The position numbers were made by a program, and so were the translations under genes. The notes beneath the pieces are model-generated. The model did no database searches. It was not told the DNA's origin and worked only from the letters and a program-made list of their open reading frames with translations. Below are positions 1-24,481 of a stretch of 64,000 nt of DNA, piece after piece. Every line of letters starts with the position of its first letter. The stretch's first letter is position 1. The DNA is from Sedimentisphaerales bacterium (GTDB lineage: Bacteria > Planctomycetota > Phycisphaerae > Sedimentisphaerales > Anaerobacaceae). Location of the stretch: assembly GCA_963708075.1 (NCBI GenBank), contig OY970194.1:4032001-4096000 (forward strand), read 5' to 3'.

Positions 1-581
1 GGCAACTGGTATCGCTGGGGAAAGCCCTCGATCTTATGATAGGCGGGCAGTGGCAGCGTATCCAGATCCAGCAGGTCTTTCTGAAATCCGGAGAACACGA
101 CCCGCCCATTGTCCCGATAGACCAGTCCGGCAATGCCCTGGGGACTGCCATCCGCCTCCATAAGGCTTCGCAGTGGAGTCTCCCCTTCTCCAACGACCAC
201 GGTATCCACCTCGTGGAAGTCCTGGACGATTCTCTCCCGCAAAGCTGAAACGTGCGGTCCCCCAGCGATACAGCAGGTCCCAGGGCTAAGTTCTTTGACC
301 CGGCGAAAGATGCGGGCCGCATCCAGAAAACCCGCCGTCGTGCACGTTGCCCCCACAAACTGTGGATGGTAGCGGCGCATGTAGTCATCGATCGTCTTAT
401 CTGAATCCGGGTGGGCAAAGCAGTCGATGATATCCGCACGGAAGCCGTACTGCTCCACGTACGCTGCGATGCCGGCCAGGCCCAATGGCGGCATCAGGTT
501 GGCCATGCGGGAGATGTCCCGGTCCGCCGCACGTACATCATAGCCCAGCGGGTGAATCAGCAAAATGCGTCGTGTATCCAT
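1..581 (-). CDS. Cobalamin-binding radical SAM protein, N-terminal part (runs off the left edge)
   Basis: Not in the ORF track. Translated by hand from ATG at 581: MDTRRILLIHPLGY...LMPPLGLAGIAAYV...IAGGPHVSAL...VVVGEGETPL...LDLDTLPLPAY. PPLGL, GGPH and GEGE are B12-binding-domain motifs of class B radical SAM enzymes. The CxxxCxxC motif would lie outside the window. Confidence 0.85.
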   Translation of the reverse strand, partial: MDTRRILLIHPLGYDVRAADRDISRMANLMPPLGLAGIAAYVEQYGFRADIIDCFAHPDSDKTIDDYMRRYHPQFVGATCTTAGFLDAARIFRRVKELSPGTCCIAGGPHVSALRERIVQDFHEVDTVVVGEGETPLRSLMEADGSPQGIAGLVYRDNGRVVFSGFQKDLLDLDTLPLPAYHKIEGFPQRYQL

Positions 582-611
582 ACTCAGTCGTCTCCGCCTC
601 GCTGCAATCCA

Positions 612-1974
612 TCAGACTGCATGCGACGGAAAATGAAGCATGCGCTCCCAGAGCAGCCCCTTCCATCCGAAGCCTCGAAGAATCGCCGCCGCGCACTGTC
701 CCTCATGGGGCGGGAAGATCCGATCGCGCCGGCCCGCCCAGGACTCCGTCACCTGCTGCTCCATCCATGCCTTGTCCACTGCCGGAGAAACATAGTAAAC
801 GGGCTCCAACAGCGTGTCTGTCTCCCGCAAAAGATGTTCCGCAATAGCGTGCTTGTGAAGAGGCGTCCCCGGATAGATCCGGATTCCCGAGAAGCCAAAG
901 ACAACGCAACATTCGAGACGAGCGATATTATTGAGCCCGTCCCGAACCGTCGTTGGTGTCTCCTGCGGCCCCCCGAAAATGACAAAATGGGCGGACGCGA
1001 TTTCCATCTGCACGCACATCTGATTCGTCCGCTCGACATCGGCCCATCGGAACGGCTTGCCCATCGCCTCCAACGTGGCGTCCGTCGTGGCATCGGTGCC
1101 AAATTCCACGGCATAGAGAACCGGCTCGCTTGCAGAGCGCCAGGATCTCACGGGTCAGCAGATGAGGCGACATATAGCAAGCCCATTTCACACCAAGCTC
1201 GCGAGCCGCCATTGTCTCGACCAAATCCAGGTACTGTCCCTGAGAGTCGTTGAATATTGAATCGACGAAGAACACGGTATCTACATGAAACTCTCGCTTG
1301 AGCCGTTCCAGATCGGCGATCACCGCCTCAATGTGCCGAGCACGAAACGTCGTGCCCTCCAGTTTCGGATAGGTACAATAGCAGCAATGATAGGGACAGC
1401 CGCGCTTGCTCTGGAGGCCGATGATTCCACTTTTGTCCCAGTAGAACGCTACCAGTGCCGGGTCGAAGCAGGGCGCACGCTGATAGGTTTCGCGTGGTTG
1501 CTGTTGCGTGACGGGCCAGACGGCCGGAAGGGAGCGTCCCTGTGTCACGGCCGCCACGGCATCTACAATCGAGCGTTCCCCCTCTCCCGGCACGGCCATA
1601 TCCGCGCCTACATACTGCCTCACCTCAGGAGGCATCGTCGATACGGCCGCTCCCCCGATAATGACGGGGGCTCGCGTGAAACGCCGTACCGAGGCGACCA
1701 GGTCCTTCGCTTCTTTCAATTCCCAAGCATCCTCGGATCTCACCAAGGAATCGATGCGATCAACATTGCGGATCGACACCGCCACCACCTCCGGGTCGAA
1801 TTCACGGATGGTTTGCCCCAGAAGCTCGGTCTGGCGATCGGCAACCAGCCAGTCGAATTGACGGATCTGATGGCCCGCATCCATCAGGACGCCGGCCACT
1901 GTCGCCATTCCTAAAGGGTAGACCGCGTACGGAGTATCACAGGTATTTGCTGATATGAGAAGGACTCGACTCAT
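612..1974 (-). CDS. Lipid-biosynthesis-type B12-binding radical SAM protein, +1 frameshift at about 1119-1120
   Basis: ORF 928..1974 has YPLGM, GEGE and RGCPYHCCYC (CxxxCxxC). The C-terminus continues in ORF 612..1151. Removing one base in GAGAACC (1116-1122) gives CKRAGLYAVEFGTD. Confidence 0.85.
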
Positions 1975-3242
1975 TTGTCTCCGGATTCCTTGCTTTGAAA
2001 CCGTCTTCTCGTTCGTGGATTGTACCGACGGTAGGTCCCGTCCTCCATTTCGCGCTCGATCACCCGCTGAAACAGCCGTCCCATCCGGAGTTGGTACCCG
2101 GAGTCGGCATAGAAAGTTTTCCAGGCATAGTCATACATCGCCTGCAACTCGTCTACGGACATGCGCTTCGGCCGGAAGACCACCTTGTCGGCGGTGTAAT
2201 CGGCCCAGTTGTTGCTCAAGATCCGCCCTTCTCGCTCCAGTTGCTCGCGAACCGGCGTGTGGGGAAACGGAGTCAGGACCGTGAACTCCGCAACGTCCAA
2301 CCGAATCTCGCACAGAAAATCGACGAGACGCTTGATGGAATCTACGTCATGATCGTCCGTGCCCAGCAGGACCGTGGCTTCCACACCGATCCCGTTGTCC
2401 TGCAGCATGCGAATGCGGTCGCGGATCACATCCGAGGTATCGAATACGGCCTGATACACATACCAGCAACCGGCCTCGGCCGCCAGGCGGACGATCTGCT
2501 CATCGTACAGGATCGGATGCGACACCCATTTCTTCTTCAGCGGCTTGATGGCTTGGAACAGGGACACCAGCCAATCCCGATCTTGCGCGAGAGAATTGTC
2601 AACGATAAAGAGTCGATTATTCTTGATCTGTTCGAACTCCTCGACGACTTTGTCTATCGGACGGGGTCGAAACTGCTTGCCGCCCAGGAAGGCGCTGCAA
2701 CAGGGAAAGCAGTTGAATCGGCAGCCGCGCGAGGCATGCACGAGGTCGACCATTTGGACACCGCGATAGTTGTATAATGCCCGGTCGAGAATATCCCGCC
2801 GGGCCGGCCCGATCCACTCCGTGGGCGGAGGATCGCCCATGAAATCGTACACACGCTTCAGCCGTCCGGCCTTGAGATCGTCGATGACCCGATCAAAACG
2901 CCCTTCGGCTTCTCCCAGGAAGATGGCGTCGGCGTGTTCTGCAACCTCCTCGCTGTGCAGCATCGTGGCAATTCCGCCGAAAATGACGGGCAGGCCTTTC
3001 GATCGAAACGTATCGGCGATCTCGAAGGCCCTTGGAAGCTGGCTCGTCAGCATGACCGAGATCGCCACCAGGTCCACCTCCTCCTCAAAATCGACAGACT
3101 GCACGTTATCGTCTTCGAAGATGATCTCCACGTCGTGCGGCACTGTCGCCGCGAAGACTACCGGCCCGTGGGGCGGCAGATGGAATGGGGTCTGATGCTC
3201 CAGCTTGGGCCACGTCGGATAGATCAGCTTCATCTTTATCAT
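1971..3242 (-). CDS. Cobalamin-dependent radical SAM protein
   Basis: 423 aa. N-terminal B12-like domain (IFGGIAT, LGEAEG), SRGCRFNCFPC, FIVDNS and LTPFPHTP. Overlaps both neighbours by 4 bp. Confidence 0.88.
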   Translation of the reverse strand: MIKMKLIYPTWPKLEHQTPFHLPPHGPVVFAATVPHDVEIIFEDDNVQSVDFEEEVDLVAISVMLTSQLPRAFEIADTFRSKGLPVIFGGIATMLHSEEVAEHADAIFLGEAEGRFDRVIDDLKAGRLKRVYDFMGDPPPTEWIGPARRDILDRALYNYRGVQMVDLVHASRGCRFNCFPCCSAFLGGKQFRPRPIDKVVEEFEQIKNNRLFIVDNSLAQDRDWLVSLFQAIKPLKKKWVSHPILYDEQIVRLAAEAGCWYVYQAVFDTSDVIRDRIRMLQDNGIGVEATVLLGTDDHDVDSIKRLVDFLCEIRLDVAEFTVLTPFPHTPVREQLEREGRILSNNWADYTADKVVFRPKRMSVDELQAMYDYAWKTFYADSGYQLRMGRLFQRVIEREMEDGTYRRYNPRTRRRFQSKESGDK

Positions 3243-3946
3243 TCAGAACCATTCCCATTGCCATGTGTATCGGTCAGGACCTTGCAGGCCAGCCAGACGA
3301 GGTCGGTGGCCTGCTGCGTTCCCCGCGTCAATTCCCGGCCATGCCATTGCCATGAGGCCGCCTCTGAACCTCTGTTCAGCACGAAGAATACTGCCCCGCA
3401 AGGCCCTTCCGGATCGGTGTTCAGCATCTTCGAGTCTACATCGCACCAGCCGGCTACCACTGTCTCACAGAAGCCCCATCGTATCAGATCCAGGGCAGCG
3501 TAAACCCCACCCAGATGTCCGTCTGAATCATCCACGACAAGGCTGGGGCCTGTCAAGCCGAATTGGATGGAGGCTTCGCCAAGCATCGTGCCCGGCAGGG
3601 TGTAGGCAAACAGGTTGGGGCTGGCGAGGGAACCACCTTGGGACGCCACCGTCTCGAAATATGCCAAGTCCGCTTCCTGACAGCCACGCCGTGTGCCTGC
3701 AACCATGCCAATCGTTCGCTTGTGCGTCCACTGATTCAGACCTGCGCTCCTGAGGGCCAGTGCGATCGCCCCAAATCCCGCCTTGGCATAGGAATCGAAC
3801 CGGCCAAATCGGGGGTGCACGACATCCAGGAACAATCTGCTTTTGAGGTTCGGCAGTCGTCCGGACCCGAGCGTGAACATCTCGCCAGGCTGCCCGCTGC
3901 CGACGCCGGAGGGTGTCACCCATCCGATTCCACTGATGTTCACCAT
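3239..3946 (-). CDS. Ketosynthase N-terminal-like protein (chain-length-factor type)
   Basis: MVNISGIGWVTPSG, RFGRFD and ASPNLFAYTLPG. No catalytic Cys/His/His motifs. TGATG coupling to the upstream KS. Confidence 0.8.
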   Translation of the reverse strand: MVNISGIGWVTPSGVGSGQPGEMFTLGSGRLPNLKSRLFLDVVHPRFGRFDSYAKAGFGAIALALRSAGLNQWTHKRTIGMVAGTRRGCQEADLAYFETVASQGGSLASPNLFAYTLPGTMLGEASIQFGLTGPSLVVDDSDGHLGGVYAALDLIRWGFCETVVAGWCDVDSKMLNTDPEGPCGAVFFVLNRGSEAASWQWHGRELTRGTQQATDLVWLACKVLTDTHGNGNGSE

Positions 3947-5076
3947 CACGATTCGGCACTCCTTTGCAGGATCAGGGCCGCATTGACACCGCCGAAACCG
4001 GAGTTCGTAGTCAGCAGATAGTCCCCTGAGAACGGTTGCGCCTGCGCCGATACACGTCCTTGCCCACCCGGCTCCGGGGCCCGCAGGCCTACGGTTGGTG
4101 GGATGCACTGATTCTCCAGGCTGCACAACCCCACTATCGTTTCGATTGCCCCGCAAGCGCCCAGAGTGTGCCCTATGGCCCCTTTGATGGAGTGAAACGG
4201 AGGCAATGAGCCAAAAATCGTGGAAAAGGCGGTCACCTCCATGGCATCGTTGTAGACCGATCCGGTGCCGTGGGCATTGATCGCCGCCACGTCAGACGGC
4301 TTCAACCCGGCCCGCTCCAGTGCCTGGCGGACTGCGAGGATCAGTCCTTCGCCCGTTCTCGACGGCGCGGTGATGTGATGGGCATCGGATGCAATGCCCC
4401 AGCCGACGATCCGGCCGAGGCTTCGGCGTTTGGCCTGTCGGCAAGCCCGTTCACTCATCAACAGCAGGCACGCCGCCCCTTCCCCCAACACCAAACCGTC
4501 GCGGTCTACATCGAAGGGACGACACGCCTGTGCAGACAGAGCCTGCAACGCGGAGAATCCGGAGAAGACAAATTCCGAGACGAGATCCAGCCCACAGACC
4601 AGAACCGACTCGACCTCCCCCTGCTGAATCTGCGAAGCTCCCAGCGCCAGGGCGATCGTCGCGGACGCACAAGCCGCATTGATGTTGCAGCGTCGTCCCT
4701 TCACGCCCAACCGATCCGCCACGAGATCCGCCACTTGACAGCCCAGGACGTGGTCCAGCGCCGTCCTTTGTGTACGAACCGCCCACTCCAACTGGTCGAT
4801 GCCTGCTTTCGTTGTTGCAGTGAACAATGTCGCATCGGCCGGAACCGAAGGGGATTCATCGAACAGCATCTCTATCAGCCCGCCCAACCGCGAGCTGTCC
4901 CTCTCGGCATCCAATGCAGCGATGAAACCGGCCACGCTGGATGTATAGCCCTCCGTGGCGAACCGCCGCACAGGGCCAATGCCCGTGTGGCCTGCCAACA
5001 GGCTGCGCCAAAGAGCCTCTCGTCCCATTCCCAGGGACGTCACGACTCGTGTATCCATTACATGGATCGCACTCAC
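3946..5076 (-). CDS. Beta-ketoacyl-ACP synthase (FabF/FabB family)
   Basis: NAACASA, CRPFD, INAHGTG, KGAIGHTLGA and NSGFGG give a complete C-H-H triad. GTG start overlaps the thioesterase stop. Confidence 0.92.
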   Translation of the reverse strand: MSAIHVMDTRVVTSLGMGREALWRSLLAGHTGIGPVRRFATEGYTSSVAGFIAALDAERDSSRLGGLIEMLFDESPSVPADATLFTATTKAGIDQLEWAVRTQRTALDHVLGCQVADLVADRLGVKGRRCNINAACASATIALALGASQIQQGEVESVLVCGLDLVSEFVFSGFSALQALSAQACRPFDVDRDGLVLGEGAACLLLMSERACRQAKRRSLGRIVGWGIASDAHHITAPSRTGEGLILAVRQALERAGLKPSDVAAINAHGTGSVYNDAMEVTAFSTIFGSLPPFHSIKGAIGHTLGACGAIETIVGLCSLENQCIPPTVGLRAPEPGGQGRVSAQAQPFSGDYLLTTNSGFGGVNAALILQRSAES

Positions 5077-5534
5077 GCCAGTTCCCCTCGCTTCCACTTC
5101 TGCAGGAACTCGGCAAAGAACGGCGGCGGCGTAAGAAGAACGTTCAGGTTGCAGTCCAGCATCATCTGTACCGTGCAGCCTGTACATACAAGTTGGCCGT
5201 GAGCGTTGCGAATCTCGTATTCGAAATTGATGCGTGCGGCGTCCGACCAGTGCAGGACCGCCGTGATGTCCATATCGTCCTCGAACCGCAAGGGACCCAG
5301 GTAGTCGATCTGCATCTGTCGCACCGGAACCGGGATTCGCTCCCGGATGAAATCGCTGTAGCCGATCCCATAGCGATGGCCCAGGGCCACCCGGGCATCT
5401 TCGAAGTAGCTAGGGTAACAGCCATGCCAGACAATCCCCATCGAGTCCACTTCCTCGAATCGGACGCGTCGCTGAACGGTCAGACGAAGCGCCGCCGGCG
5501 CACCGTTGATGGGCGGGAAGTACGGTTTACGCAT
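5073..5534 (-). CDS. Acyl-CoA/ACP thioesterase (4-hydroxybenzoyl-CoA thioesterase-like hot-dog fold)
   Basis: VRFEEVDSMGIVWHGCYPSYFEDAR signature. Confidence 0.88.
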   Translation of the reverse strand: MRKPYFPPINGAPAALRLTVQRRVRFEEVDSMGIVWHGCYPSYFEDARVALGHRYGIGYSDFIRERIPVPVRQMQIDYLGPLRFEDDMDITAVLHWSDAARINFEYEIRNAHGQLVCTGCTVQMMLDCNLNVLLTPPPFFAEFLQKWKRGELA

Positions 5535-5919
5535 GGCCACCTTCCTCAACATCAAACTCCAGTGTGAACACAGCGGCCTTCTCACTGCCTGCCAGCAGCG
5601 TGAAACTGCATCGCAGGCGATCATTCCGCGGCTCTTCCTGCCAGCAGACCGTCACGGGCTGGTCCGGCAGGATGGTTCTGAGAAACTTGCTCCGCTCCAC
5701 CCGTCGAAGGCGCCAGTTGCAGGCGCTGCGAACACACAGAGCACACTGTCCCGTCAACAATTGTACGAATGCCGGCAGGACCGGGTGCCCCGGAAAGTGC
5801 CCCTGGAAGCCGGTGAAGTTTTTGTCAAAGTGAAACACCAACTCATGGCTCCGCCCCCCATCCAGGGTTCGGACCTGCCTGTCTGCACATGCGAGGATCT
5901 CTTCTCGTAACGTTCGCAT
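5527..5919 (-). CDS. 3-hydroxyacyl-ACP dehydratase-like protein (FabZ/ApeI type)
   Basis: FQGHFPGHPVLPA motif and KFLRTILP. GAGGTGG RBS before ATG 5919. Confidence 0.82.
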   Translation of the reverse strand: MRTLREEILACADRQVRTLDGGRSHELVFHFDKNFTGFQGHFPGHPVLPAFVQLLTGQCALCVRSACNWRLRRVERSKFLRTILPDQPVTVCWQEEPRNDRLRCSFTLLAGSEKAAVFTLEFDVEEGGHA

Positions 5920-5926
5920 CGCCACC

Positions 5927-8326
5927 TCAGTTTGCCGGATCATGATTCTGCAGGGCGGGAATCACGAACACGGCACAGACCATAGAAGGAAGAAGGCCCA
6001 GGACAACGGTAATACCCAGTGAGAACATCGCTGGATGATGCGCCAGCGCCAGGGCCCCAAAACTGCTGATCGTGGTCAGGGCCGACGTGACTACCGACCG
6101 CTCGGCCACGCCATCACACTCTTTACAGCGATACAGCATGAATGTCCCATAGTCGATGCTGAGCCCCAGGACGAGCACTCCGGCTGCTATATTGAACAGA
6201 TTCACCCGGATGCCCAGCAATCCCATCAGGGCCAGCATCACGACAACGCCGGTGATCGACGGGAGCAGGCACAAAACCACATGCGTTAGACGCCGCAACG
6301 TCACCGCCAATACAAGCACGACCAGGCTCAGGGCCCCCAGCAAGAAACGGGTGAAATCGCGATGCAGCAACTGTCGAAGCGAGACAGCAAACTGCCTCTG
6401 TGAGACGGCCTGAGCGCCCGGCGGCAGTTCCAAGCCAGACAGGCCCGCAGCCTGATCCGCCTGGTCGCTATCGGAAACCAGGTTGATCAGGCCCAAGCCC
6501 GCCGGCTCCAACAACCACAGCGGCTCCAACAGCGGCCCAGCCGCCTTGCGGAGATCGGCAGGCCCGAAGGGCTCTCTTTCCTGTTCAATCCACTGAAGAA
6601 AGGGTATGAACGCTCCCTGCGAGAAACCCAGCGTTCGCCCGTGAGTATCGAGAGCTTCCTTCAACCGGTCCAAACGCCCTTGCTCGCGCCAGAAACGCTC
6701 CCATCGGACCAGATTGGCCGACTGTGTCGCCCGGCTGGGCAATAGCGGAGCCACGCTCACGAACTCACCCGGCCGCCGATTCGCGGACAACTGCGCATAG
6801 ACCTGCTCATTCGTCCGCAGCGCTGCCTCTTCATCTTCGTCGCGAACGACCACCAAGGCCCGACCCCGGGGATCACCCCATACATCCCGGACGCAGAACT
6901 CGTCCGCCAGAATGTCCTTGGGCATCAACCCAAAGGATCGAAGATCCCCCTCGAATGCCACGCGAAAACACCATGGCACACAGATCAGGATCGCCGCCAG
7001 CCAGGCGCCGATCACCCAACGAGAACGACCGGCCAACACCTGGGGCAACAACAACCAGTGGTCCCGCCGGCTCTGTCCAACCCAATGCGGCAGACATCCC
7101 ACGGCCAGCGCCAGGGCCACTGTCAGCCCTGCAATCGCCAAAACCGCCAATTGACGCTGGATCGGAACGGCGGACCATAAAAGGACGGCAAAGACAACGA
7201 CTGTCGAAGCGAAGGATATAACCATCGGCACCGCCAACCCCGCCATCTCCTCCTGGGGCTTGGCTCCCGGCCTGCGGAGAGCATAGAACACATGGAGCCC
7301 ATAGTCATCGGAGATCCCCAGAAGAACGGCGCCAAACCCCACCACAATAGCCGACAGCGGCGTGAACAGTCCCGCGACCACAAGCACACCTGCCAGGACC
7401 CCCAACGACGGGACGGCAAACACGAATACCGCCCGCCAGTGACGCAGCATGACCAGGAAGATCACGGCCAGACTAAGCGACGAGACCGCAAAAACCACGA
7501 TCAGGTCCCGCTTGATTGCTTTGGCATTGGCAACCGTATAGCGATGGGCACAGACTACATGGGCGAGGATCGTCTCGGGAACCGTCCGCGAGAGCACCTC
7601 GTCGAGATACTGAAGCACCTGCTCGCCACCCTTGGAATCGCCCATGGAGATCGGCGTCTCCGCGACGAGCAGGAGGTGCTTGCCGGTCGGATCGATGAGA
7701 AATCCTTGTTCGACCTGCATGTCGGGGAGCAGGGCCACGGCCCCCAACTTGCGCAGCACCTGGTTGCGAAATCCAAGGGGATCTTTGGCGAGCCATTTTC
7801 TCAACCACAGTCCCTCAGGACCGGCGAGAGCCTGAAGATCGGTCTGGAGCGTCTGAGCCACCTGCGGGGACGCGACTTGGGGCGCCAGGGCTGCCGCGTC
7901 CTCCTCTGTGAACAACTGCGGCATGTGCGCATAAAGCCAATCGATCAGATTGGCCCCCGCCTCCATGGGCAAACCACCGATCACGTTGGAAATCAGCGGT
8001 GGACCCAGCCGCTCTTCCAGAAGCGCCGCCGTCTCCATCAACAGAGAGACCTGCTCAGGCTCCCGGGCTTCCAGATCGATCAGAATGCTCCGCGTGAATG
8101 GCGCCGCTTCCAGCAGCCGATAGCTGGCCACGAACGTTGGATCGCTGTCCGGAAGCATCAGCGTGATGTCCTCCCGCATGGGCGCCCGCGCCACAATCAG
8201 GCCCCCGATCAGGGCCGACACCGCCACCACGGCGGCGTACGCCCATCGATGGCGGGATCCCACTCGATAGATCCCCCGGGCTGTCCGCGCCAACACGTTT
8301 GCTTCCACCTGTCCCAAGCGATCCAC
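5927..8326 (-). CDS. MMPL/RND-family lipid exporter
   Basis: 799 aa with two hydrophobic helix blocks, each carrying an LG(I/L)SxDYG motif, separated by large soluble loops. Confidence 0.85.
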   Translation of the reverse strand: MDRLGQVEANVLARTARGIYRVGSRHRWAYAAVVAVSALIGGLIVARAPMREDITLMLPDSDPTFVASYRLLEAAPFTRSILIDLEAREPEQVSLLMETAALLEERLGPPLISNVIGGLPMEAGANLIDWLYAHMPQLFTEEDAAALAPQVASPQVAQTLQTDLQALAGPEGLWLRKWLAKDPLGFRNQVLRKLGAVALLPDMQVEQGFLIDPTGKHLLLVAETPISMGDSKGGEQVLQYLDEVLSRTVPETILAHVVCAHRYTVANAKAIKRDLIVVFAVSSLSLAVIFLVMLRHWRAVFVFAVPSLGVLAGVLVVAGLFTPLSAIVVGFGAVLLGISDDYGLHVFYALRRPGAKPQEEMAGLAVPMVISFASTVVVFAVLLWSAVPIQRQLAVLAIAGLTVALALAVGCLPHWVGQSRRDHWLLLPQVLAGRSRWVIGAWLAAILICVPWCFRVAFEGDLRSFGLMPKDILADEFCVRDVWGDPRGRALVVVRDEDEEAALRTNEQVYAQLSANRRPGEFVSVAPLLPSRATQSANLVRWERFWREQGRLDRLKEALDTHGRTLGFSQGAFIPFLQWIEQEREPFGPADLRKAAGPLLEPLWLLEPAGLGLINLVSDSDQADQAAGLSGLELPPGAQAVSQRQFAVSLRQLLHRDFTRFLLGALSLVVLVLAVTLRRLTHVVLCLLPSITGVVVMLALMGLLGIRVNLFNIAAGVLVLGLSIDYGTFMLYRCKECDGVAERSVVTSALTTISSFGALALAHHPAMFSLGITVVLGLLPSMVCAVFVIPALQNHDPAN

Positions 8327-11763: not shown

Positions 11764-11770
11764 GAACTGA

Positions 11771-12616: not shown

Positions 12617-12886
12617 CTACCCTTTTGCGGAGCCCTCCATCTCCCGCTTCTTCTCGATCACGAGGCGATGCAGATCGCCCAAGGTTCGCACCTCACGGAC
12701 ACGAGGCTCTTCTCGAAGAGTTACCCCGAAGGCCTGCTGCAATACGACGACGACATCAACAAAATCCAAGCTGTCGAAGCCCAGACCTTCCACCAGATGA
12801 GCGTCCGGCGTCATCACGCCGGGGTCCAGCTCGAATTCATTGATAAGACTCCGATTGACTAACTCGATTACCTCGCTATCTGTCAC
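12617..12886 (-). CDS. Acyl carrier protein
   Basis: LGFDSLDFVD phosphopantetheine site. GTG start preceded by AGGAGA. Confidence 0.9.
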   Translation of the reverse strand: MTDSEVIELVNRSLINEFELDPGVMTPDAHLVEGLGFDSLDFVDVVVVLQQAFGVTLREEPRVREVRTLGDLHRLVIEKKREMEGSAKG

Positions 12887-18129: not shown

Positions 18130-18170
18130 CTTCACCTCATGACTGTGTTCGCGATTGTGATGGATCGTCG

Positions 18171-18902
18171 CTACATGTAGATCCCGCCGTTGACGCTCAG
18201 GACCTGCCCTGTGATGTACGACGCATCCTCGGAGCACAGGAAGGCCACAACAGCCGCAACTTCTTCACATGTACCGAAGCGGTGCATGGGAATCACCTTG
18301 AGCAAATCGGCCTTTGGCAGATCCTTGGTCATATCCGTCTCAATGAAACCGGGAGAAACCGCGTTGACCAGGACACCACTGCGGGCGACCTCCTTGGCCA
18401 GGGCACGAGTCGCGCCGATCAGACCTGCCTTGGCGGCGGAGTAGTTCACCTGCCCCGGCATGCCGGTCTGGCCGGAGGTCGATACGATGTTGATGATGCG
18501 GCCCCGCTTCTTCTGCATCATCAGGCCTACCACGCGGCTGGTCACATGATAGAAACCATCCAAGCTGACACTGAGCACGTCCTTCCAGTTCTCCTTCGAC
18601 ATCCAGAACAGCAGGCCGTCGCGGTTGATGCCGGAGTTGTTCACCAGCACATATGGACACTGCTCCCCGAGCATTTTCTCCAACGCCTCCTTGGTAGCCC
18701 GCTCGTCGGACACGTCAAACGGCAGAAGTGTGCAATCGCGTCCGGCTTCCCGAACCCGGGCGGCCACGGCCTCGGCGGCCTCGTGATTGCTCTTGTAGTT
18801 CAGCCATATCTCATAGCCATCCCTGGCCAGACGAACAGCAATGGCCGCACCAATGCCTCTGGATGCGCCCGTAATCAAAGCGATACCCTGACCGCTTGCC
18901 AT
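18171..18902 (-). CDS. fabG: 3-oxoacyl-ACP reductase
   Basis: TGASRGIG, VNNSG, NYSAAKAG (YxxxK), PGFIETDM and YITGQVLSVNGG. Confidence 0.95.
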   Translation of the reverse strand: MASGQGIALITGASRGIGAAIAVRLARDGYEIWLNYKSNHEAAEAVAARVREAGRDCTLLPFDVSDERATKEALEKMLGEQCPYVLVNNSGINRDGLLFWMSKENWKDVLSVSLDGFYHVTSRVVGLMMQKKRGRIINIVSTSGQTGMPGQVNYSAAKAGLIGATRALAKEVARSGVLVNAVSPGFIETDMTKDLPKADLLKVIPMHRFGTCEEVAAVVAFLCSEDASYITGQVLSVNGGIYM

Positions 18903-18986
18903 GAAGCCTCCCGAATGGGCCATTTCATCTTCTATTCCACAGGGTCGATCGTATATGCCACAGGCAGACCCGCCATCAGACTCTCT

Positions 18987-19124: not shown

Positions 19125-19263
19125 CTATACAGCACCCCGTCGTCTCTGGTAAGCTGCGTTCATGTGATTAGGTCGGCCCTGCTGGATAATCTCAGCACCG
19201 CTCGTGCGTGAGGAATGCACCGGTTGGACTCCGGCCAGTTGATCGTCAGGAGAATTGTTTCTC

Positions 19264-19518
19264 ATGGATATCAAACAGAGACTCAAGCAAGTCATTGTGG
19301 AAGACTTGAATCTTGAGGAAACAACACCCGAGCAAATTCGTGACGATGCGGCCCTGTTTGGAGAAGGGATCGGGCTGGACTCGCTCGATGCGGTAGAACT
19401 GGTGGTTGTTGTAAAGAGGCATTTCGGAGTCGAAATCAAAGACATGACGGAAGGCCGCACGGCATTTGCCTCGATCAGTTCGCTGGCAAAATTCATTGAG
19501 GAACGTATGACGCGATGA
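19264..19518 (+). CDS. Acyl carrier protein (aryl-polyene type)
   Basis: LFGEGIGLDSLDAVEL, preceded by an AGGAGA RBS. Confidence 0.92.
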   Translation: MDIKQRLKQVIVEDLNLEETTPEQIRDDAALFGEGIGLDSLDAVELVVVVKRHFGVEIKDMTEGRTAFASISSLAKFIEERMTR

Positions 19519-20702
19519 TGCAGAGCGACGAGGCGGTTCCCATCACCGGTCTGGGTTGTCTTTGCGCTGCCGGAAGATCGGTCGCGAGACTCACGGAGGC
19601 GCTGTTCGCCGGACGTCGTTGCGTTGCCTGGCGGCAGGTTCGCGGAAACAGTTACCCCGTGTTCCAGTTAGATAGCCATTCTGTTCCTGCCGGGTACTAC
19701 GAGGAGGCCGAGTGCGAGCGGTGCGGCCGACTGGCCATAGCGGCTGCCGACGAGGCACTCACCCATGCCGGTCTGACCGGCGAGCATCTCCAACGCCGTC
19801 GGGTGGGGGTCTGCCTGGGCACCACGGTTGGCAGTGCGATGAATAATGAGACGTTCTACCGCGATTTCCGTGCAGGCCGCATGCCGGGAATTGAGCCGAT
19901 ACGTCGCTATCTGCGGGCCAACCCGGCAATGATGCTCGCACAAGCGTTTGGCCTGACCGGACCATGCCAGACAATCACCAATGCCTGCTCCTCCGGCGGC
20001 GTAGCCATCGGACATGCCGCCCAGTGGGTGCGAGCCGGTCTGTGTGATGTGGCGATTGCCGGCGGAGCCGATATGCTCTGTAACGTCATTCATGCCGGCT
20101 TTCTCTCATTGTTGGTTACAGACACGGAGCCCTGCCGACCGTTTGACCGAAACCGTCGCGGTTTGAATCTCGGCGAAGGGGCCGGCGTCGTCGTACTGGA
20201 GTCAAAACAATCCGTCTGCGAGCGAGACGCTCCGGTCCAGGCGTGGTTGTGCGGGTATGGAAACGCCTCTGATGCGTATCACATTTCTGCGCCGGAGCCC
20301 GGTGGCAGAGGGTTGAGGCGGGCTCTGGAGCAGGCACTGACACAGGCTCATATAGACCCCAAAGATGTCGATTTTATCAACGCCCACGGGACTGCCACGC
20401 CGGAGAACGACCGCGTCGAGGGCCGGCTATTTCCTGATATGTTTCCAGGGGTCCCCTTTGGTTCCACGAAGGGCTTCACCGGTCATACGCTCGGAGCCGC
20501 CGGGGGGATCGAGGCCGTGATCACGATCCTTTGTCTGCGGGAGAAGCGAATCCCGGCGAGCATCGGATTTCACGAGCCGGACCCGGATTTTCTCGGTCAG
20601 CCGGTTGTGGAGAATACGCCGATCGCCGGCCGATATGGACTATCCGACTCCGTTGCGTTTGGCGGGAACAATGTAGCTCTGATTTTTCAGGGGCAATCGT
20701 GA
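19515..20702 (+). CDS. Beta-ketoacyl-ACP synthase
   Basis: NACSSG, CRPFD, INAHGTAT, KGFTGHTLGA and AFGGNN. Confidence 0.92.
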   Translation: MMQSDEAVPITGLGCLCAAGRSVARLTEALFAGRRCVAWRQVRGNSYPVFQLDSHSVPAGYYEEAECERCGRLAIAAADEALTHAGLTGEHLQRRRVGVCLGTTVGSAMNNETFYRDFRAGRMPGIEPIRRYLRANPAMMLAQAFGLTGPCQTITNACSSGGVAIGHAAQWVRAGLCDVAIAGGADMLCNVIHAGFLSLLVTDTEPCRPFDRNRRGLNLGEGAGVVVLESKQSVCERDAPVQAWLCGYGNASDAYHISAPEPGGRGLRRALEQALTQAHIDPKDVDFINAHGTATPENDRVEGRLFPDMFPGVPFGSTKGFTGHTLGAAGGIEAVITILCLREKRIPASIGFHEPDPDFLGQPVVENTPIAGRYGLSDSVAFGGNNVALIFQGQS

Positions 20703-21751
20703 CGGAGCCTCATCCTGCAATTATTGGCATCGGTTTAGTGGGCGGTTTTGGCTTGGGCAAGCAGGCCGCGATCGAAGCGCTTCGCGTGGGAGGCAAGCCC
20801 AACGGAACAGTGCCTGTGATGAGCCCATCGGGACAGCGTCAACTGCCCGCCTACCAGGTGGATACGTCGCCTGTTAGCCGCATCGTTGCTCCTGCGGCTT
20901 TGAGACGCATGAACCGATTTGCCAAAATCGCGGTGCTCGGCGCGTCGCTGGCACTGAAGGATGCCGGCTGGAACATCCCTCTCAAACGCGACGACGTCGG
21001 CTTGGTCATCGCCAGCGGGTACGGGGCATCGAAGAGCACCTTCGACTTCCTGGACAGCATGATCGACGGCGAGGGTCAATTCCCCTCGCCTACCCTCTTC
21101 TCCAACTCCGTTCATTCATCGGCCGCCTCACACCTGAGCATTGTATTGGAGCTGGGTGGACCGTGTCTGACAGTCAGCCAGTTCGAGATGTCGACCATCT
21201 CGGCACTGCTGACGGCGCACCAGTGGCTCCAGGATGGCTGCGTGGAAGCGGTCCTGTTCGGCGCGGTCGATGAGGTCTGCCCTGTCCTGGGGTACTGCTA
21301 CGACTGTTTCTTTGAAGCCAACGCCTGCGGGCCCATGGAGCCTTTTGCCTGGGACAGGCAGACGGCCGTCATGGGAGAAGGGGCGGCGTTCTTGCTGCTG
21401 ACGCGACGAACGGATACCGGCAACGCCTATGGTCACGTCGATGGGCTGGCATGGACCCGGAGTCAGGATGTCACAGTCCCTGAAGACAGCCTCCTGGTAC
21501 TCGGGGCTGACGGCCACACCTGCTGTGCCGCCGACTACCGTCGGTTGTCCGAGGCTGCGGCAACTCAAGCCGCCTACGCCCCGGTGTACGGAAGTCTGCC
21601 TGGGGGACAGGCTTTCGATGTAGCCATAGCGGCGGCCGTGGCCGAGCAGGACTCCAGCGGCAGTCGCATCTGTTCCGCCAAATGCGACGCAAATGGAAAT
21701 TGTGGGGTTATCGAATGCACTTTCGATCCAGGGCATCGTGGGCATGCCTGA
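20699..21751 (+). CDS. Ketosynthase-like chain-length factor
   Basis: LRRMNRF, PSPTLFSNSVH and MGEGAAF. The catalytic Cys position reads SQFEMS and there are no His motifs. GTGA coupling to the KS. Confidence 0.82.
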   Translation: MTEPHPAIIGIGLVGGFGLGKQAAIEALRVGGKPNGTVPVMSPSGQRQLPAYQVDTSPVSRIVAPAALRRMNRFAKIAVLGASLALKDAGWNIPLKRDDVGLVIASGYGASKSTFDFLDSMIDGEGQFPSPTLFSNSVHSSAASHLSIVLELGGPCLTVSQFEMSTISALLTAHQWLQDGCVEAVLFGAVDEVCPVLGYCYDCFFEANACGPMEPFAWDRQTAVMGEGAAFLLLTRRTDTGNAYGHVDGLAWTRSQDVTVPEDSLLVLGADGHTCCAADYRRLSEAAATQAAYAPVYGSLPGGQAFDVAIAAAVAEQDSSGSRICSAKCDANGNCGVIECTFDPGHRGHA

Positions 21752-22320
21752 CAGGCTTGGTCGAGGTGGTTTTGCTGTCGGGACCCGTCCACGCCAGGAC
21801 AGAGGATTCGCTGGGAGAGAACCTGCTGAACGCTCTTCGCGGCCGGGTGCCGCACGAGACGGCGTTAGGGCTGTATGCCGGCACGGCTTACGATTGGTCG
21901 GACATGAGTTTCTGTCTGGCGAGTTGGCAGGCGCTTTTCGACTATGACGAGATCTGGCCACATCCGGCGCCGGAGGGACTGGGCATCCGTGTGGAAGCCG
22001 ATGCAGGGGTCGCCGTCGGAAGCGAGTTCTCAGGCGAACGTCTGATGGCCTCGGGCAACTTCCTGGCCGTCTATGAGTTTGGCTCCCCAAGAACCTCACG
22101 GATTGTCCCCTACGTGGAAGCGGGAATCGGATTGATCTACACCGACTTTCAGCGAGAGGACCAGGGATGGCGTCTCAATTTCAACCCAGTGGCCGGATTC
22201 GGCGTTCGAATGGGATCGAAATTCATCGTGCTTCGCGCCCATCATCTATCCAACGGCGGCCTGGACGATGACAACCGGGGCATCAATTCAGTCGTTCTCG
22301 GATTCGGCATCTATCTGTAA
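21715..22320 (+). CDS. Acyloxyacyl hydrolase / lipid A 3-O-deacylase PagL-family outer-membrane barrel
   Basis: PYVEAGIG, LNFNP and HHLSNGGL..DNRGINS, with alternating beta-strand pattern at the C-terminus. Start is uncertain. Confidence 0.72.
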   Translation: MHFRSRASWACLTGLVEVVLLSGPVHARTEDSLGENLLNALRGRVPHETALGLYAGTAYDWSDMSFCLASWQALFDYDEIWPHPAPEGLGIRVEADAGVAVGSEFSGERLMASGNFLAVYEFGSPRTSRIVPYVEAGIGLIYTDFQREDQGWRLNFNPVAGFGVRMGSKFIVLRAHHLSNGGLDDDNRGINSVVLGFGIYL

Positions 22321-22497: not shown

Positions 22498-23100
22498 ATG
22501 AAGAAACAAGGATTGTTGGCTCTGTTGCTTGGTTCGATCGTTGTCGCGTGCTGCTCCTGTAAGAGCAACGAGGCATCCAGCGCGCCGAGTGATAGTTCAC
22601 AGACTGTGGCTGCCAGGGCAGACACCGACGTCTACAACAAATACAACGTTCATTACATCTCCGAGAAGGGCAAGAACAAAGCCAGTTATGCGAACTGGAC
22701 CGACTGGCCTGGACATGGCATACTGTCCTACAATTCGAAAATCCGCGTCGATTCTCTCGGGAAGACGATTGATCTGGTGGATGTGAGCACAGGCAAAGTC
22801 ATTGAGATGGAGTTCCATTCCGGGCGGATGGGCATGTCCGCCAAAGAGTACGTCGACCTGATCACGTCACCAACACCCGTCAACTATGAAGGCTTGAGCG
22901 ATGTGGATCGCCAGGGGATTCAGGCCGGAAAAGCCATGGTCGGAATGAGTAAACAAGGCGTGTTAGTTGCCCTGGGCTATCCGGCCAAGCATCAAACACC
23001 ATCCATCGATCAGAACCGCTGGGTCTATTGGAAAGGCCGATTTGAAACCTATGCAGTGGAATTCGACAACGGTGGCAAGGTCGCGTCAATCAGGAAGTAA
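22498..23100 (+). CDS. Lipoprotein of unknown function (C-terminal BamE/SmpA-like motif)
   Basis: AAGGAG RBS, signal peptide with Cys, and VGMSKQGVLVALGYP...WVYW. Confidence 0.7.
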   Translation: MKKQGLLALLLGSIVVACCSCKSNEASSAPSDSSQTVAARADTDVYNKYNVHYISEKGKNKASYANWTDWPGHGILSYNSKIRVDSLGKTIDLVDVSTGKVIEMEFHSGRMGMSAKEYVDLITSPTPVNYEGLSDVDRQGIQAGKAMVGMSKQGVLVALGYPAKHQTPSIDQNRWVYWKGRFETYAVEFDNGGKVASIRK

Positions 23101-23113
23101 CTCCGGCATCCGC

Positions 23114-23848
23114 ATGCAATGGGTCTACGCGTCGCTTGTGTCTGCCGTTCTGATCGTCACGTCTCATGCAGGTGCATCGAAGGGCCCGGTCGATTCCCCA
23201 CAGTCGCCGCAACTTCTGCGGCTGCTGCGGGAATCCCGGGCCCCTTATCATACCTTTGCCACTCGATTCCATCAGCGCAAGCATCTGGACATCCTCAATG
23301 TGGACTTGGAATCCGAAGGGATGATTTTCTTTCGCCGGCCGGGCTCGGTGCGCTACGAAATTGTCTCTCCGGTGCGGTCTCTCATGATCTACGATGGGAA
23401 GAAGGTCCGCTGCTATGCATTCAGTGAGGGCAAGTGGAAGTTGCTGAACAACCCCGGCGCCACCGCCATCGGGCAGGTCCTGCGACAGATCGGCCGTTGG
23501 ATTCAGGGGGATTTCGACGCCGACCGCAAGATGTTCGAAATCGGTGTCGTGTCCTCTGAGGATGGTGGCGGCTGCATTCACCTGGTGCCTCGCAGCGAAG
23601 CCCTCATGCAGTTCATTCGACGCATCGAAATATATGTCAGGAAGACCTCGGACGACTACTGGGTGAACAGGATCATTATCCGGGAATCGGAGGCGGACAT
23701 GACAGACATGCGGTTCCGCCAGGAATTGCGCGACCAACCGATTCCTGAAGGCACTTTCTCATCCCCTGAGGCGTCCGATGCATGCCAAGCCATGTTTGTG
23801 CAAGAAAAGAGTCCCGATCCCAATGAAACCGAGAAACCGAAATCGTGA
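23114..23848 (+). CDS. LolA-like periplasmic lipid/lipoprotein carrier
   Basis: Signal peptide, FHQRKHL, SEGMIFFRRPGSVRYE...P and MIYDGKK. Confidence 0.75.
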   Translation: MQWVYASLVSAVLIVTSHAGASKGPVDSPQSPQLLRLLRESRAPYHTFATRFHQRKHLDILNVDLESEGMIFFRRPGSVRYEIVSPVRSLMIYDGKKVRCYAFSEGKWKLLNNPGATAIGQVLRQIGRWIQGDFDADRKMFEIGVVSSEDGGGCIHLVPRSEALMQFIRRIEIYVRKTSDDYWVNRIIIRESEADMTDMRFRQELRDQPIPEGTFSSPEASDACQAMFVQEKSPDPNETEKPKS

Positions 23849-24481
23849 GGAGTGACGCCTGGCTCATTCTGATGGCTCTCTTTCTCGGCGGCTCAGGCTG
23901 TGCATACCAGCAGTCATTCGGAGAGCCGATTGACGATGTGGCCCGTCGAGCGGCTCTGCTCCAGGCATATCCGCGTCCCAATGTCTCCCAGGCAGTCTTC
24001 CGCACCTTGATTCGCTGGGGCAAGCGAGAAGTCTCTCTGACCGAGGTTGTCAAGGCATCTCCCGACGGCGGCCTGTCGGTGGCGGGCATAACGGACATCG
24101 GCAGCACCCTGTACGCGGCTCAGATCGATCCAAATGGGCGAGGGCACATCATTAACAAGTCCATACCCTTCTCGAACCGGTGGCTGCTCGACGGCCTCAT
24201 CGCCGAGTTGCTCATCCCTTGGAATGGGCCGAATGAGAACCTGCCGATTGCACAGACAAGCAGACAACACTTGGGCATTCGTCTGCCAAGAGCAACGCAT
24301 CACCCGCGTGTTCATCTTCGATGGGGCTGGGAGCTGGCAGCAATTCCGCCGGGTCAAAGGCTCTCGCTTACTTAGCCGAGCCTTCCTGGAGTGGGATGGG
24401 CAACCCATTCCAAAGATCATGCGCGTGGACAACACCGCTGAACACTACCAGGTTGTCCGAGAACGAGTCTCAGTCCAGTAG
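23845..24481 (+). CDS. Lipoprotein (DUF3261-like by context), +1 frameshift at about 24238
   Basis: GSGC lipobox. ORFs 23845..24375 and 24134..24481 join by deleting one base, plausibly in GAGAACC (24235-24241). Family call rests on its position after LolA. Confidence 0.55.

Follow-up and report, generated by a model that had tools for sequence, protein, structure and literature searches.

The DNA stretch analysed here (the window; 64,000 nucleotides of contig OY970194.1 from a Sedimentisphaerales bacterium, G000:C1:4032001-4096000) contains most of a ~27-kb biosynthetic gene cluster, which consists of two divergent arms meeting at ~18923-19255 and lies within a 7.5-Mb single-contig planctomycete genome. 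We assign a probability of about one half to the proposal that its product is a coumaroyl-primed aryl polyene, sugar-linked to a phosphoglycerolipid with a second unsaturated chain, methylated by RS2, further modified by RS3 and RS1, and exported. RS1, RS2 and RS3 denote three radical S-adenosylmethionine (SAM) enzymes with cobalamin (B12)-binding domains. An initial annotation of the sequence had described the cluster as a one-off hybrid. It is instead one copy of a conserved, widespread family that has been on record since 2009, when it was noted by Rattray, and 282 relatives share the family. Judged by its sequences, the cluster belongs to the orphan TIGR04072 family, probably working in the manner of aryl polyene (APE) and flexirubin clusters, and is probably not a ladderane pathway.

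Based on the gene content, the following pathway can be proposed. The lyase would convert tyrosine to 4-coumarate, which would be activated by the FlxY-like ligase. The ketosynthase (KS) KS4 and its chain-length-factor (CLF) partner CLF2, probably helped by KS1 and CLF1, would extend the starter on the acyl carrier protein (ACP) ACP2, together with FabG and the dehydratases (DH) DH1 and DH2. The cluster contains no enoyl reductase, and the double bonds would therefore stay. KS2, the ApeR orthologue, with ACP1 and perhaps KS3 and the flavoprotein, would produce a second unsaturated acyl chain, which PlsC would set at the sn-2 position of a lyso-phospholipid. The family 2 glycosyltransferase (GT2) would add a sugar, onto which the LpxL-type enzyme would transfer the aryl chain. 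RS2 would take over the sp2 C-methylation for which E. coli has ApeB; the position ortho to the phenol hydroxyl would be the simplest target. RS3 and RS1 could introduce further methyls or another radical change on the ACP-bound chain, which is the most tentative part of the proposal. The MMPL, LolA-like and LolB-like proteins would carry the lipid outward.

Gene content and the probable polyene-type backbone

The gene inventory was compiled from open reading frame (ORF) calls and family scans (Pfam and NCBIfam models) of the window and its left flank, and it recovered every gene listed in the initial annotation. Positions are those of the window unless a G000:C1 or L-number locus is given. 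The left edge of the window is not the edge of the cluster: the minus arm continues for ~3 kb beyond it, and recovery of this flank completed RS1 and added GT2 with a DUF2062 domain and an LpxL-type acyltransferase. The relatives were collected by an RS3 search of the GTDB genome set (282 among 375 candidate stretches), and locus counts refer to the best 80 of the 282, many of which are incomplete. The genes are listed below from left to right; the minus arm is transcribed from FabG upward through the list and the plus arm from ACP2 downward.

G000:C1:4029037-4029996 (-) (L003:7037-7996), LpxL-type acyltransferase; PF03279; 21% identity to ApeJ, 24% to the flexirubin-cluster enzyme
G000:C1:4029953-4031128 (-) (L003:7953-9128), GT2+DUF2062; PF00535 and PF09835; 35% ApeJ, 34% flexirubin-cluster GT2
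1..581 (-), whole gene G000:C1:4031142-4032581, RS1, B12-binding radical SAM protein; PF02310 and PF04055; HpnJ/BchE/SD1168-like
612..1974 (-), RS2, TIGR04072-family B12 radical SAM protein, TsrM-like; split at ~1119; halves 338 and 216 bits, cut-off 360
1971..3242 (-), RS3, B12/radical SAM/DUF4070 protein; highly conserved marker of the cluster family
3239..3949 (-), CLF1, short KS partner of ~236 residues; PF00109 N-domain only; 25% to the short partner of L096
3946..5187 (-), KS1, catalytic ketosynthase; C-H-H motifs; groups with flexirubin KSb (0.985); true start probably downstream of the first ATG
5073..5534 (-), thioesterase (TE), ApeK-like; PF13279; 33% ApeK, 38% Flx
5527..5943 (-), DH1, ApeI-like hot-dog dehydratase; PF22818 E 9e-4, under cut-off; 33% ApeI
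5927..8326 (-), MMPL/RND exporter, ApeM-like; HAE3/HpnN models 87-89 bits; 21% ApeM; 24% Flx exporter over 772 residues
8383..8823 (-), DH2, ApeP-like hot-dog dehydratase; 32% ApeP, E 9e-9; no Pfam match
8820..10418 (-), aromatic amino-acid lyase of the 4-methylideneimidazole-5-one (MIO) type, FlxA-like; tyrosine-type motifs (ASG triad, Ser-His, NQDVVSM)
10415..11790 (-), aryl-CoA ligase, FlxY-like; split at ~11258; halves 273 and 159 bits on the FlxY model
11771..12583 (-), PlsC-type acyltransferase, ApeD-like; PF01553; 23% ApeD
12617..12958 (-), ACP1, ApeF-like; PF00550; 38% ApeF
12876..14177 (-), KS2, ApeR orthologue; 41% ApeR; ApeR clade (0.999)
14141..15571 (-), flavin adenine dinucleotide (FAD) oxidoreductase of the CrtI/amine-oxidase superfamily; PF01593
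15775..16806 (-), accessory esterase of the polyhydroxybutyrate (PHB)-depolymerase family; NF050058 157 bits, cut-off 150; seen in just 2 further fetched loci
16906..18129 (-), KS3 (16906..18237 in the motif analysis), orthologue of the KS beside the flexirubin lyase and FabG; 47% to L096 KSa; clade support 1.0
18171..18923 (-), ketoreductase FabG, FlxB/ApeQ-like; best model FlxB, 331 bits, cut-off 340
19255..19518 (+), ACP2, ApeE-like; PRK09184 above cut-off; 44% ApeE
19515..20702 (+), KS4, ApeO-like KS of the polyene-elongating type; 40% ApeO; clade with ApeO and Flx KSc (0.86)
20699..21751 (+), CLF2, chain-length-factor-type partner; PF13723 above cut-off; 23% Flx chain length factor; no BLAST match to ApeC
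21682..22320 (+), PagL-like outer-membrane beta-barrel acylhydrolase; PF09411 69 bits; adjoins CLF2 in 8/80 loci
22498..23100 (+), lipoprotein, cluster satellite; lipoprotein clusters at 0.96, a minority with BamE; 11/80 loci
22967..23848 (+), LolA-like chaperone, ApeL-like; PF03548; best model flexirubin LolA2, 75 bits, under cut-off
23845..24481 (+), LolB/ApeN-like lipoprotein; two ORFs here, a single 211-232-residue ORF in relatives

Five minus-arm junctions have 4-nt overlaps, in agreement with the earlier description of two divergent and largely coupled operons, and the accessory esterase is flanked by gaps of 99-203 nt. Family support is weak for some of the genes, since DH1 and MMPL score under the Pfam cut-offs and DH2 has no Pfam match.

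All four ketosynthases, KS1-KS4, keep the Cys-His-His residues, and the two partners have only the N-terminal KS domain, as had been reported for four complete and two Cys-less proteins. The cluster was compared with the flexirubin-type cluster of Persicobacter pPP6 (L096), in which the FlxA, FlxB and FlxY models score over the NCBIfam cut-offs, and with the ape cluster of E. coli CFT073. A FastTree phylogeny of 36 KS sequences, which omitted one host FabF that has an internal stop, grouped KS2 with ApeR (support 0.999); KS3 fell with the flexirubin enzyme Flx KSa (1.0), KS1 fell with Flx KSb (0.985), and KS4 fell with ApeO and Flx KSc (0.86). Counterparts in the window were found for 18 of the 22 L096 genes and for 12 of the 18 ape genes. 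The APE/flexirubin architecture proposed earlier is upheld by these counts, and the KS phylogeny agrees with it. A blastn search with KS2 against E. coli genomes gave no match.

The ape core genes (10.1101/2020.12.19.423268) are represented by KS (ApeO and ApeR), CLF (by PF13723 only), two ACPs, DH (ApeI and ApeP), a ketoreductase and ApeM. The anchor genes ApeD and ApeJ have counterparts in PlsC (23%) and in GT2 and the acyltransferase, which match the two halves of ApeJ (35% and 21%, respectively). The flexirubin elongation and export set of KS, partners, ACP, DH, TE, GT2, MMPL, LolA and flavoprotein is also present. In common with L096, the planctomycete cluster has the lyase, ligase, FabG, three KS, two partners, two ACPs, two DHs and TE, and also the LpxL-type acyltransferase, GT2-DUF2062, MMPL, PlsC, flavoprotein and LolA. 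In common with the ape clusters of E. coli CFT073 and Xenorhabdus doucetiae, it has counterparts of ApeO, R, E, F, I, P, Q, M, D, J, K and L, a partner of the chain-length-factor family, and an ApeN-like lead. The ApeR-type KS2, the three B12 radical SAM genes, PagL and the esterase are present here beyond the flexirubin set, whereas the class I methyltransferase, C45 peptidase and polysaccharide deacetylase of flexirubin clusters of Bacteroidota (e.g. flxA-Y of Chitinophaga pinensis) are missing. Unlike in ape clusters, in which ApeH acts with 4-hydroxybenzoate, the starter genes here are a lyase and a CoA ligase; the ApeJ functions are divided between two genes, and two KS, one partner, the flavoprotein and three B12 enzymes are additional.

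A canonical flexirubin cluster was rejected, because DarB and DarH are absent from the host: DarB-family queries gave a single 22-23% match in the host genome, and DarH queries gave none. The resorcinol anchor of flexirubins is therefore probably not available. Several Desulfobacterota copies of the cluster are followed by DarH (L162:3330-9699, L163:1936-7831, L050:19247-20682, L047 and L056) and, where the locus extends further, by ABC-transporter-like genes and a StlD/DarB-family KS; L162 and L163 add an ACP and a fourth B12 radical SAM gene. This resorcinol-type module of the Desulfobacterota copies is absent from the planctomycete host. A cispentacin-type cyclising KS pair was also rejected: KS1 scores below the AmcF cut-off, CLF1 matches no NCBIfam model, and flexirubin clusters hold the same pair.

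The flavoprotein scores 175 bits against its flexirubin-cluster counterpart and 75 bits against that of Cluster I, an anammox gene cluster discussed below. Its best model is CrtD (61 bits, cut-off 550). Of the earlier name 'flavin desaturase', the assignment to the FAD oxidoreductase family (PF01593) holds, and 'desaturase' is a family label only, which is unproven since the 'desaturases' of anammox bacteria did not replace CrtI. The flavoprotein and the PaaK-like ligase are both ordinary genes of flexirubin clusters and hence no signature of ladderanes.

Starter unit, B12 radical SAM enzymes and proposed lipid anchor

The lyase is the only MIO enzyme of the host. Its ASG triad is intact, and it carries Ser-His in motif 1 and Gln in motif 2 (NQDVVSM, found in all 19 lyase-bearing loci). 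This mixture agrees with that of FlxA, which combines a motif 1 like that of histidine ammonia-lyase (HAL) with a motif 2 like that of tyrosine or phenylalanine ammonia-lyases (TAL/PAL) and is a tyrosine ammonia-lyase with ~1000-fold preference for tyrosine, and FlxY activates, and prefers, 4-coumarate (PMC3992019, partial text). The best model for the ligase is FlxY, with 451 bits for an intact relative (cut-off 520), and PaaK models reach at most 187. Because the lyase and the ligase both score under the equivalog cut-offs, 4-coumaroyl priming is likely rather than shown. These FlxA- and FlxY-like genes support the aromatic starter of the initial annotation, as the counterparts of ApeM, ApeL and ApeN support its outer-membrane export arm. 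Histidine catabolism is disfavoured as the role of the lyase by the Gln-type motif 2 and the operon context.

Across the cluster family, gene content indicates that the starter is modular. In three ligase-only copies (L061:1898-3406, L081:2112-3608 and L094:2126-3625), the lyase slot is occupied by a larger ORF fused to the ApeP-like DH2, and the two of these that were scanned contain a SPASM radical SAM domain (AhbD/NirJ-like). One SPASM ORF is 44% identical to the gene following the ligase in anammox cluster II (L128:16249-17355). The MIO lyase and the SPASM enzyme look interchangeable at the starter slot, which suggests a radical route to the starter unit. In two copies with neither lyase nor ligase (L074:2344-3477 and L085:2418-3551), DH2 is fused to an N-terminal part of ~230 residues. 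The fusion in L074 has kept the SPASM domain, has no match to the radical SAM core, and is possibly a relic of a SPASM-DH2 fusion.

RS1, RS2 and RS3 all carry the CxxxCxxC motif, which bears out the earlier count of at least three B12 radical SAM genes. The halves of RS2 cover positions 1-281 and 282-442 of the TIGR04072 model, and an intact orthologue from the same genus scores 576 bits (cut-off 360). An RS2 profile built from 68 sequences matched TsrM among the solved B12 enzymes with E 1e-58, and the runner-up with E 8e-34. The predicted structure of the intact orthologue (mean pLDDT confidence 92) overlays TsrM with a template-modelling (TM) score of 0.83, and the runner-up with 0.70. Arg69 of TsrM, which is positioned at the lower cobalamin face (G/A-x-S/T-x-R), is matched in RS2 and is invariant in the 68 sequences; it has been proposed to favour methyl-cation transfer (PMC9204698, partial text). 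The next-best model after TIGR04072, both for the N-terminal half of RS2 and for the intact relative, is BzaD, a predicted sp2 methylase (PMC12931638, partial text). RS2 differs from TsrM and BzaD in being ~120 residues shorter, has ~22% identity to them, and scores below both cut-offs. The ape cluster of E. coli and L096 each hold an ApeB-type methyltransferase, 48% identical to each other, whereas no ApeB/Flx-type methyltransferase was found in the 80 related loci or near the host cluster. The missing ApeB-type enzyme, the likeness to TsrM and the conserved Arg69 make RS2 likely to be an sp2-carbon methylase standing in for ApeB, as far as sequences and structure models can tell. Of the radical modification predicted in the initial annotation, methylation therefore has sequence support and cyclisation has little.

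RS3 forms its own clade (support 1.0), apart from the anammox enzymes, in a tree of 145 radical SAM sequences, from which proteins outside 400-520 residues were left out and in which deep nodes are weakly supported. It constitutes a tight family inside a large group (765 representatives at E 1e-30 or better). The RS3 model (pLDDT 95) has AprD4, TsrM and MgmA as its nearest folds, and the fold search provided no functional assignment. In the region of its cysteine motif (~2696-2723), 78 of 78 RS3 orthologues have Pro before the third cluster Cys, and a fourth Cys follows in 66 of 78. Radical SAM motifs usually carry an aromatic residue before the third cluster Cys. The best models for RS1 are HpnJ, BchE and Sden_1168 (190, 175 and 172 bits), all far below cut-off, and the position of TsrM Arg69 is occupied by Thr, according to a reading of the motif. 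Full-length orthologues number 34 for RS1 (50-87% identity) and 78 for RS3, a gap explained in part by locus edges. RS1 looks optional, and its sequence makes it the best candidate for non-methylase chemistry.

In the solved APE lipid, the aryl polyene is carried by GalNAc-phosphate-glycerol with a conjugated C26 chain at sn-2, and it was proposed that ApeD sets the sn-2 chain from ApeF and that ApeJ handles the sugar and the aryl transfer (10.1101/2020.12.19.423268). KS2, ACP1 and PlsC adjoin in the planctomycete cluster, matching the ApeF/ApeD arm proposed for the sn-2 chain; the role of ApeR in this arm is our own inference. By analogy, the GT2 and LpxL-type pair would do the job of ApeJ, and KS2-ACP1-PlsC that of ApeD/ApeF. 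The lipid anchor predicted earlier is retained in altered form: PlsC had been thought to esterify the aryl chain to a glycerolipid, whereas by the APE analogy it would set the second, non-aromatic chain, and the aryl chain would go to the sugar. Export of APE has been assigned to ApeM, ApeL and ApeN (PMC8253772, partial text), to which the MMPL protein, the LolA-like protein and the product of the last gene may correspond by analogy. DUF3261 is found in 20% of the members of look-alike clusters for the last gene, which is a lead only. The presence of LpxL-family and PagL-family genes could also mean that the aryl or polyene chain is attached to lipid A, another envelope glycan or a lipoprotein, with the PagL-like barrel remodelling the product, and lipid A or lipoprotein are listed as possible anchors (PMC8253772, partial text). 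However, ApeJ has the same GT2 and acyltransferase make-up, the solved Xenorhabdus product is a GalNAc-phosphoglycerol lipid, and PagL was found in only 8 of the 80 loci, many of them incomplete. We give this arrangement a slim chance.

Several observations weigh against a coumaroyl-primed, sugar-linked aryl polyene. ApeA, ApeB, ApeG and ApeH have no counterpart in the cluster; genome-wide, ApeH and ApeG gave no match, and ApeB gave only partial matches of at most 27% identity, away from the cluster. The nearest solved relatives of the lyase are tyrosine aminomutase entries (337 bits, versus 290-306 for other HAL-/TAL-type enzymes). The lyase scores below the cut-offs of both the FlxA model (479, cut-off 700) and the tyrosine aminomutase (TAM) model (457, cut-off 501), and the specificity of such lyases is not predictable by sequence alone (PMC3992019, partial text). 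The starter slot is visible in 30 loci, of which 11 have lyase and ligase, 6 ligase only and 13 neither, and RS2 is seen in 29 of the 30; five genomes with lyase-less copies contained no lyase above 39% identity. Since RS2 and RS3 are kept where the lyase is absent, they need not act on the coumarate ring, and the target of RS2 may be another ring or double bond. Glu273 of TsrM, which ligates the unique iron, is absent from RS2 (Asp-Ser-Ile/Val in 62 of 64 orthologues, motif unmatched in 2), and the mechanism of RS2 may therefore differ from that of TsrM. The flavoprotein could catalyse reduction or isomerisation instead of desaturation. Flexirubin clusters carry GT2, LpxL-type and PlsC genes too, yet their product is a resorcinol ester, which makes the sugar anchor an analogy. 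Finally, a literature search, outside which most subscription journals lay, found no product, expression or enzyme data for any member of the family.

The ranking of solved relatives raises the possibility that the MIO enzyme is a tyrosine aminomutase providing a beta-tyrosine starter for an amino-acyl-primed lipid. The score below the TAM cut-off, the FlxY-like partner ligase and the flexirubin-like context argue against it, and its chance appears slimmer still than that of a lipid A anchor.

A different reading of the same genes is that the acyl chains are the main substrates of the radical SAM enzymes and the flavoprotein, which would give a colourless or weakly coloured, methyl-branched and partly reduced membrane lipid with the aromatic starter as a replaceable cap. 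RS3 and RS2 accompany TE-KS1-CLF1: CLF1 is directly upstream of RS3 in 69 of 71 loci and RS2 directly downstream in 67 of 73. RS2 and RS3 also persist in lyase-less copies, and RS3 contains DUF4070, which we take to be the domain of the sp3 hopanoid methylase HpnP. However, the cluster provides no enoyl reductase for a reduced chain, KS4 and KS2 group with polyene-cluster enzymes, and RS2 looks like an sp2 methylase. We consider this reading unlikely, although it is the strongest of the alternatives.

Distribution of the family and relation to anammox gene islands

The best 80 RS3 relatives are 63-88% identical to the host protein and belong to Planctomycetota, Desulfobacterota, Nitrospirota, Lentisphaerae, Verrucomicrobiota and others; the nearest loci are mostly labelled Planctomycetota, Phycisphaerae or Pirellulales. 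The gene order is conserved, with CLF1 present in 75, RS2 in 71, KS1 in 64, GT2 in 52, the acyltransferase in 48 and the lyase in 19 of the 80 loci, and it is near-identical to that of many Desulfobacterota and Nitrospirota copies. The recurrence of identical gene order in several phyla indicates that the cluster is not a chance assembly. The cluster is rare in the phylum of the host: an RS3 orthologue was found in 3 of 400 other genomes, and TIGR04072 scored over its cut-off in 3 of 150 other genomes of the host order. The GC content of the cluster is 59.1%, versus 60.4% for the genome, and 8% of 278 same-size windows are lower, so that there is no significant compositional sign of recent transfer; horizontal transfer is suggested by the patchy distribution alone. 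In planctomycetes of family f63, a dozen or more genomes have a TIGR04072 match, and no other cluster gene was found in the 40 kb examined around one of them (L147:12382-13749), so the TIGR04072 family also occurs alone.

Clusters of this kind were described in 2009 from Kuenenia, Desulfotalea, Geobacter and Pelobacter, and no ladderanes were detected in Desulfotalea (Rattray, PMC2649909, partial text). Expressed 'ladderane' clusters whose role is unknown have been reported from many non-anammox phyla in the Cariaco system (PMC9902471, partial text). The planctomycete cluster contains the genes by which Rattray defined such clusters: at least two type II fatty acid synthase genes with radical SAM, phytoene-dehydrogenase-like, PaaK-like ligase, glycosyltransferase and membrane-protein genes. 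In place of the Desulfotalea psychrophila and Geobacter clusters, copies from Geothermobacter (L050), Desulfuromonas (L030) and Pelobacter (L094) were compared gene for gene. The cluster shares with the orphan islands of Desulfotalea psychrophila, Geobacter, Pelobacter and kuste3335-3352 a TIGR04072 enzyme, a second B12 enzyme, multiple FabF proteins with non-catalytic partners, a PaaK-like ligase, a CrtI-like flavoprotein, GT2, an RND exporter and LolA. The kinship with the Desulfotalea, Geobacter and anammox islands recognised in the initial annotation is thus borne out by the TIGR04072 enzyme and the shared gene set.

Identification of the product would name a lipid encoded in hundreds of bacterial genomes, including that of the cultured Geothermobacter hydrogeniphilus (L050, a lyase-less copy). 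The planctomycete copy is complete and has the most readable starter, a lyase with a ligase. Ladderanes and the jawsamycin chain are the only ketoacyl-type lipids proposed to be modified by radical SAM enzymes, according to a 2026 review (PMC13459092, partial text), and any product of the TIGR04072 cluster family would extend this list.

The anammox reference set comprised three fatty acid synthase clusters of the anammox-family genome G275, whose gene orders match kuste3603-3608, kuste2802-2805 and kuste3335-3352 (PMC4790861, partial text); the host and the anammox-type family f43 belong to one phylum. The kuste3335-3352-type island (cluster II) shares RS2, the ligase, the flavoprotein, GT2 and the exporter with the planctomycete cluster at 18-42% protein identity. 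The ligase is followed by the lyase here, versus a SPASM radical SAM gene in the anammox island and in ligase-only copies. The planctomycete cluster additionally has the LpxL-type acyltransferase, PagL and the ApeR-type KS, and lacks the UbiE-like methyltransferase of the island. Among the 20 f43 genomes listed as having some TIGR04072 match, 5 exceed the cut-off. The island ligase was sought in 5 f43 genomes, namely four of 99-100% completeness selected because they lack the TIGR04072 hit and one as the positive control, and it was present in 1. The island appears to be a sibling within the APE family that uses another starter enzyme. If it is such a sibling and patchy, about half of the 34 candidate ladderane genes would be removed from consideration. 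Most listed anammox-family genomes have a TIGR04072-like gene of 280-340 bits, below the cut-off, which seems to be more widely kept than cluster II. In L130:12329-14828 and L135:9599-12117, this gene adjoins an ORF of 353-364 residues, type III polyketide synthase-like by eye, outside the known fatty acid synthase clusters.

The conserved and highly expressed ladderane candidate of anammox bacteria is Cluster I (10.64898/2026.05.19.726425, partial text). Cluster I (KustE3603-3608) resembles the planctomycete cluster in having an ACP, a dehydratase, a KS/CLF-type pair, a CrtI-like flavoprotein and a B12 radical SAM enzyme of the broad subgroup of RS3, and differs in having no starter, transfer or export genes. 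No KS of the window groups with amxFabF2 or amxFabFmut of Cluster I in the 36-sequence tree, and the radical SAM enzyme of Cluster I and RS3 fall in different clades of the 145-sequence tree. RS3 is 28-33% identical to the Cluster I enzyme, versus 29-38% to unrelated family members. The window contains no match to amxACP, and amxFabZ gave a marginal match (22%, E 0.006). Searches of solved structures with KS4, CLF1 and the flavoprotein did not discriminate; the top match of KS4 was 9S5H, a near-match of the Cluster I KS, with 207.6 versus 207.1 for ordinary FabF. A ladderane pathway was rejected on the basis of the KS tree, the radical SAM tree and the distribution, and the cluster was placed in the orphan TIGR04072 family because orthologues of the KS pair, ACP and radical SAM enzyme of Cluster I are missing. 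The link to ladderane islands made in the initial annotation thus holds for the patchy cluster II and fails for the conserved Cluster I. Cluster I and the kuste2802-2805-type cluster have sister radical SAM enzymes (L137:13566-15026 and L138:7673-9154; support 1.0) and sister KS pairs (0.99 and 1.0), suggesting that the two are one duplicated cluster.

The B12 enzymes could nevertheless cyclise or cross-link conjugated chains into ladderane-like or other carbocyclic lipids. Consistent with this, the TIGR04072 family of RS2 is shared with an anammox island, RS3 is in the broad subgroup of the Cluster I enzyme (28-33%), and the best models of RS1, HpnJ and BchE, are non-methylases. In addition, the position held by Arg in TsrM and by a bulky residue in TokK is taken in RS1 by the small residue Thr, and the best NCBIfam model for KS1 is the cyclising AmcF (241 bits, cut-off 325). 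However, the KS and ACP comparisons separate the window from Cluster I, and RS3, whose identity to the Cluster I enzyme does not exceed that to generic members, lies in a separate clade. Several near-complete anammox-family genomes did not yield the related island, Desulfotalea was reported without ladderanes (PMC2649909, partial text), and plain flexirubin clusters without a radical SAM gene hold counterparts of KS1 and CLF1. We regard such lipids as very unlikely. A narrower version, in which RS1 and RS3 act as radical cyclases or cross-linkers forming rings within, or across, the paired conjugated chains of a lipid of aryl-polyene type, is still decidedly unlikely, if slightly less so. If this ring closure were true, the cluster family would provide many anaerobes with outer-membrane lipids of a new carbocyclic class, and B12-radical ring formation on ACP-bound polyenes, a chemistry long proposed for ladderanes, would gain its first workable model in the cultured carriers.

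Integrity of the locus and neighbouring genes

RS2, the CoA ligase and the last gene (23845-24481) are each broken in the host and form one ORF in relatives. This raises the question of whether the cluster is a decaying copy that makes no product. The extra base at 1119 in RS2 is absent from short-read contigs of 2 of 4 sequencing runs, one of which is at least 99% alike in 40 of 42 pieces and may be the source sample, and hence serves as a check of the assembly but provides no independent support. The ligase break at 11258 is in frame in one contig of a close strain (depth 3.6); the other three runs have no bridging cover, and the best-matching run does not reach the break. A 1-nt indel at 15808 in the esterase was found in one run. 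Other split genes are also present elsewhere in the host assembly. The RS2 and ligase breaks look like assembly indels, and the cluster is probably intact. The pseudogene reading was largely rejected since both breaks are absent from read-derived contigs, the ligase check being one contig of depth 3.6, and decay appears scarcely credible in spite of the frameshifts in RS2, the ligase and the ApeN-like gene. In another planctomycete genome (G153; L149, L150 and L151), the cluster is scattered over three regions far apart, whose ends interrupt RS2, the ligase and MMPL, owing to rearrangement or misassembly.

DNA near-identical to the host locus is present in freshwater-sediment sequencing runs. 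The host genome contains two loci of the heme-copper-oxidase family (G000:C1:7467036-7468394 and 7205179-7206431), and the host may therefore not be a strict anaerobe. The B12 radical SAM model has 23 matches across the host genome. An Rfam scan found nothing in the window or in the 20-kb left flank. Lipoprotein-like genes on the left (G000:C1:4027918-4028598) and right (24526-25389) of the cluster recur beside it in relatives; a counterpart of the left one (34% identity) lies within an anammox cluster II region, that of the right one in L149 is 73% identical, and both may be cluster satellites. Further to the right (25510-31216), three genes recognised by eye are unrelated to the cluster: one is arylsulfatase-like, one belongs to the glucosidase family and is divided between two ORFs (26942-29810), and one encodes a lipoprotein.

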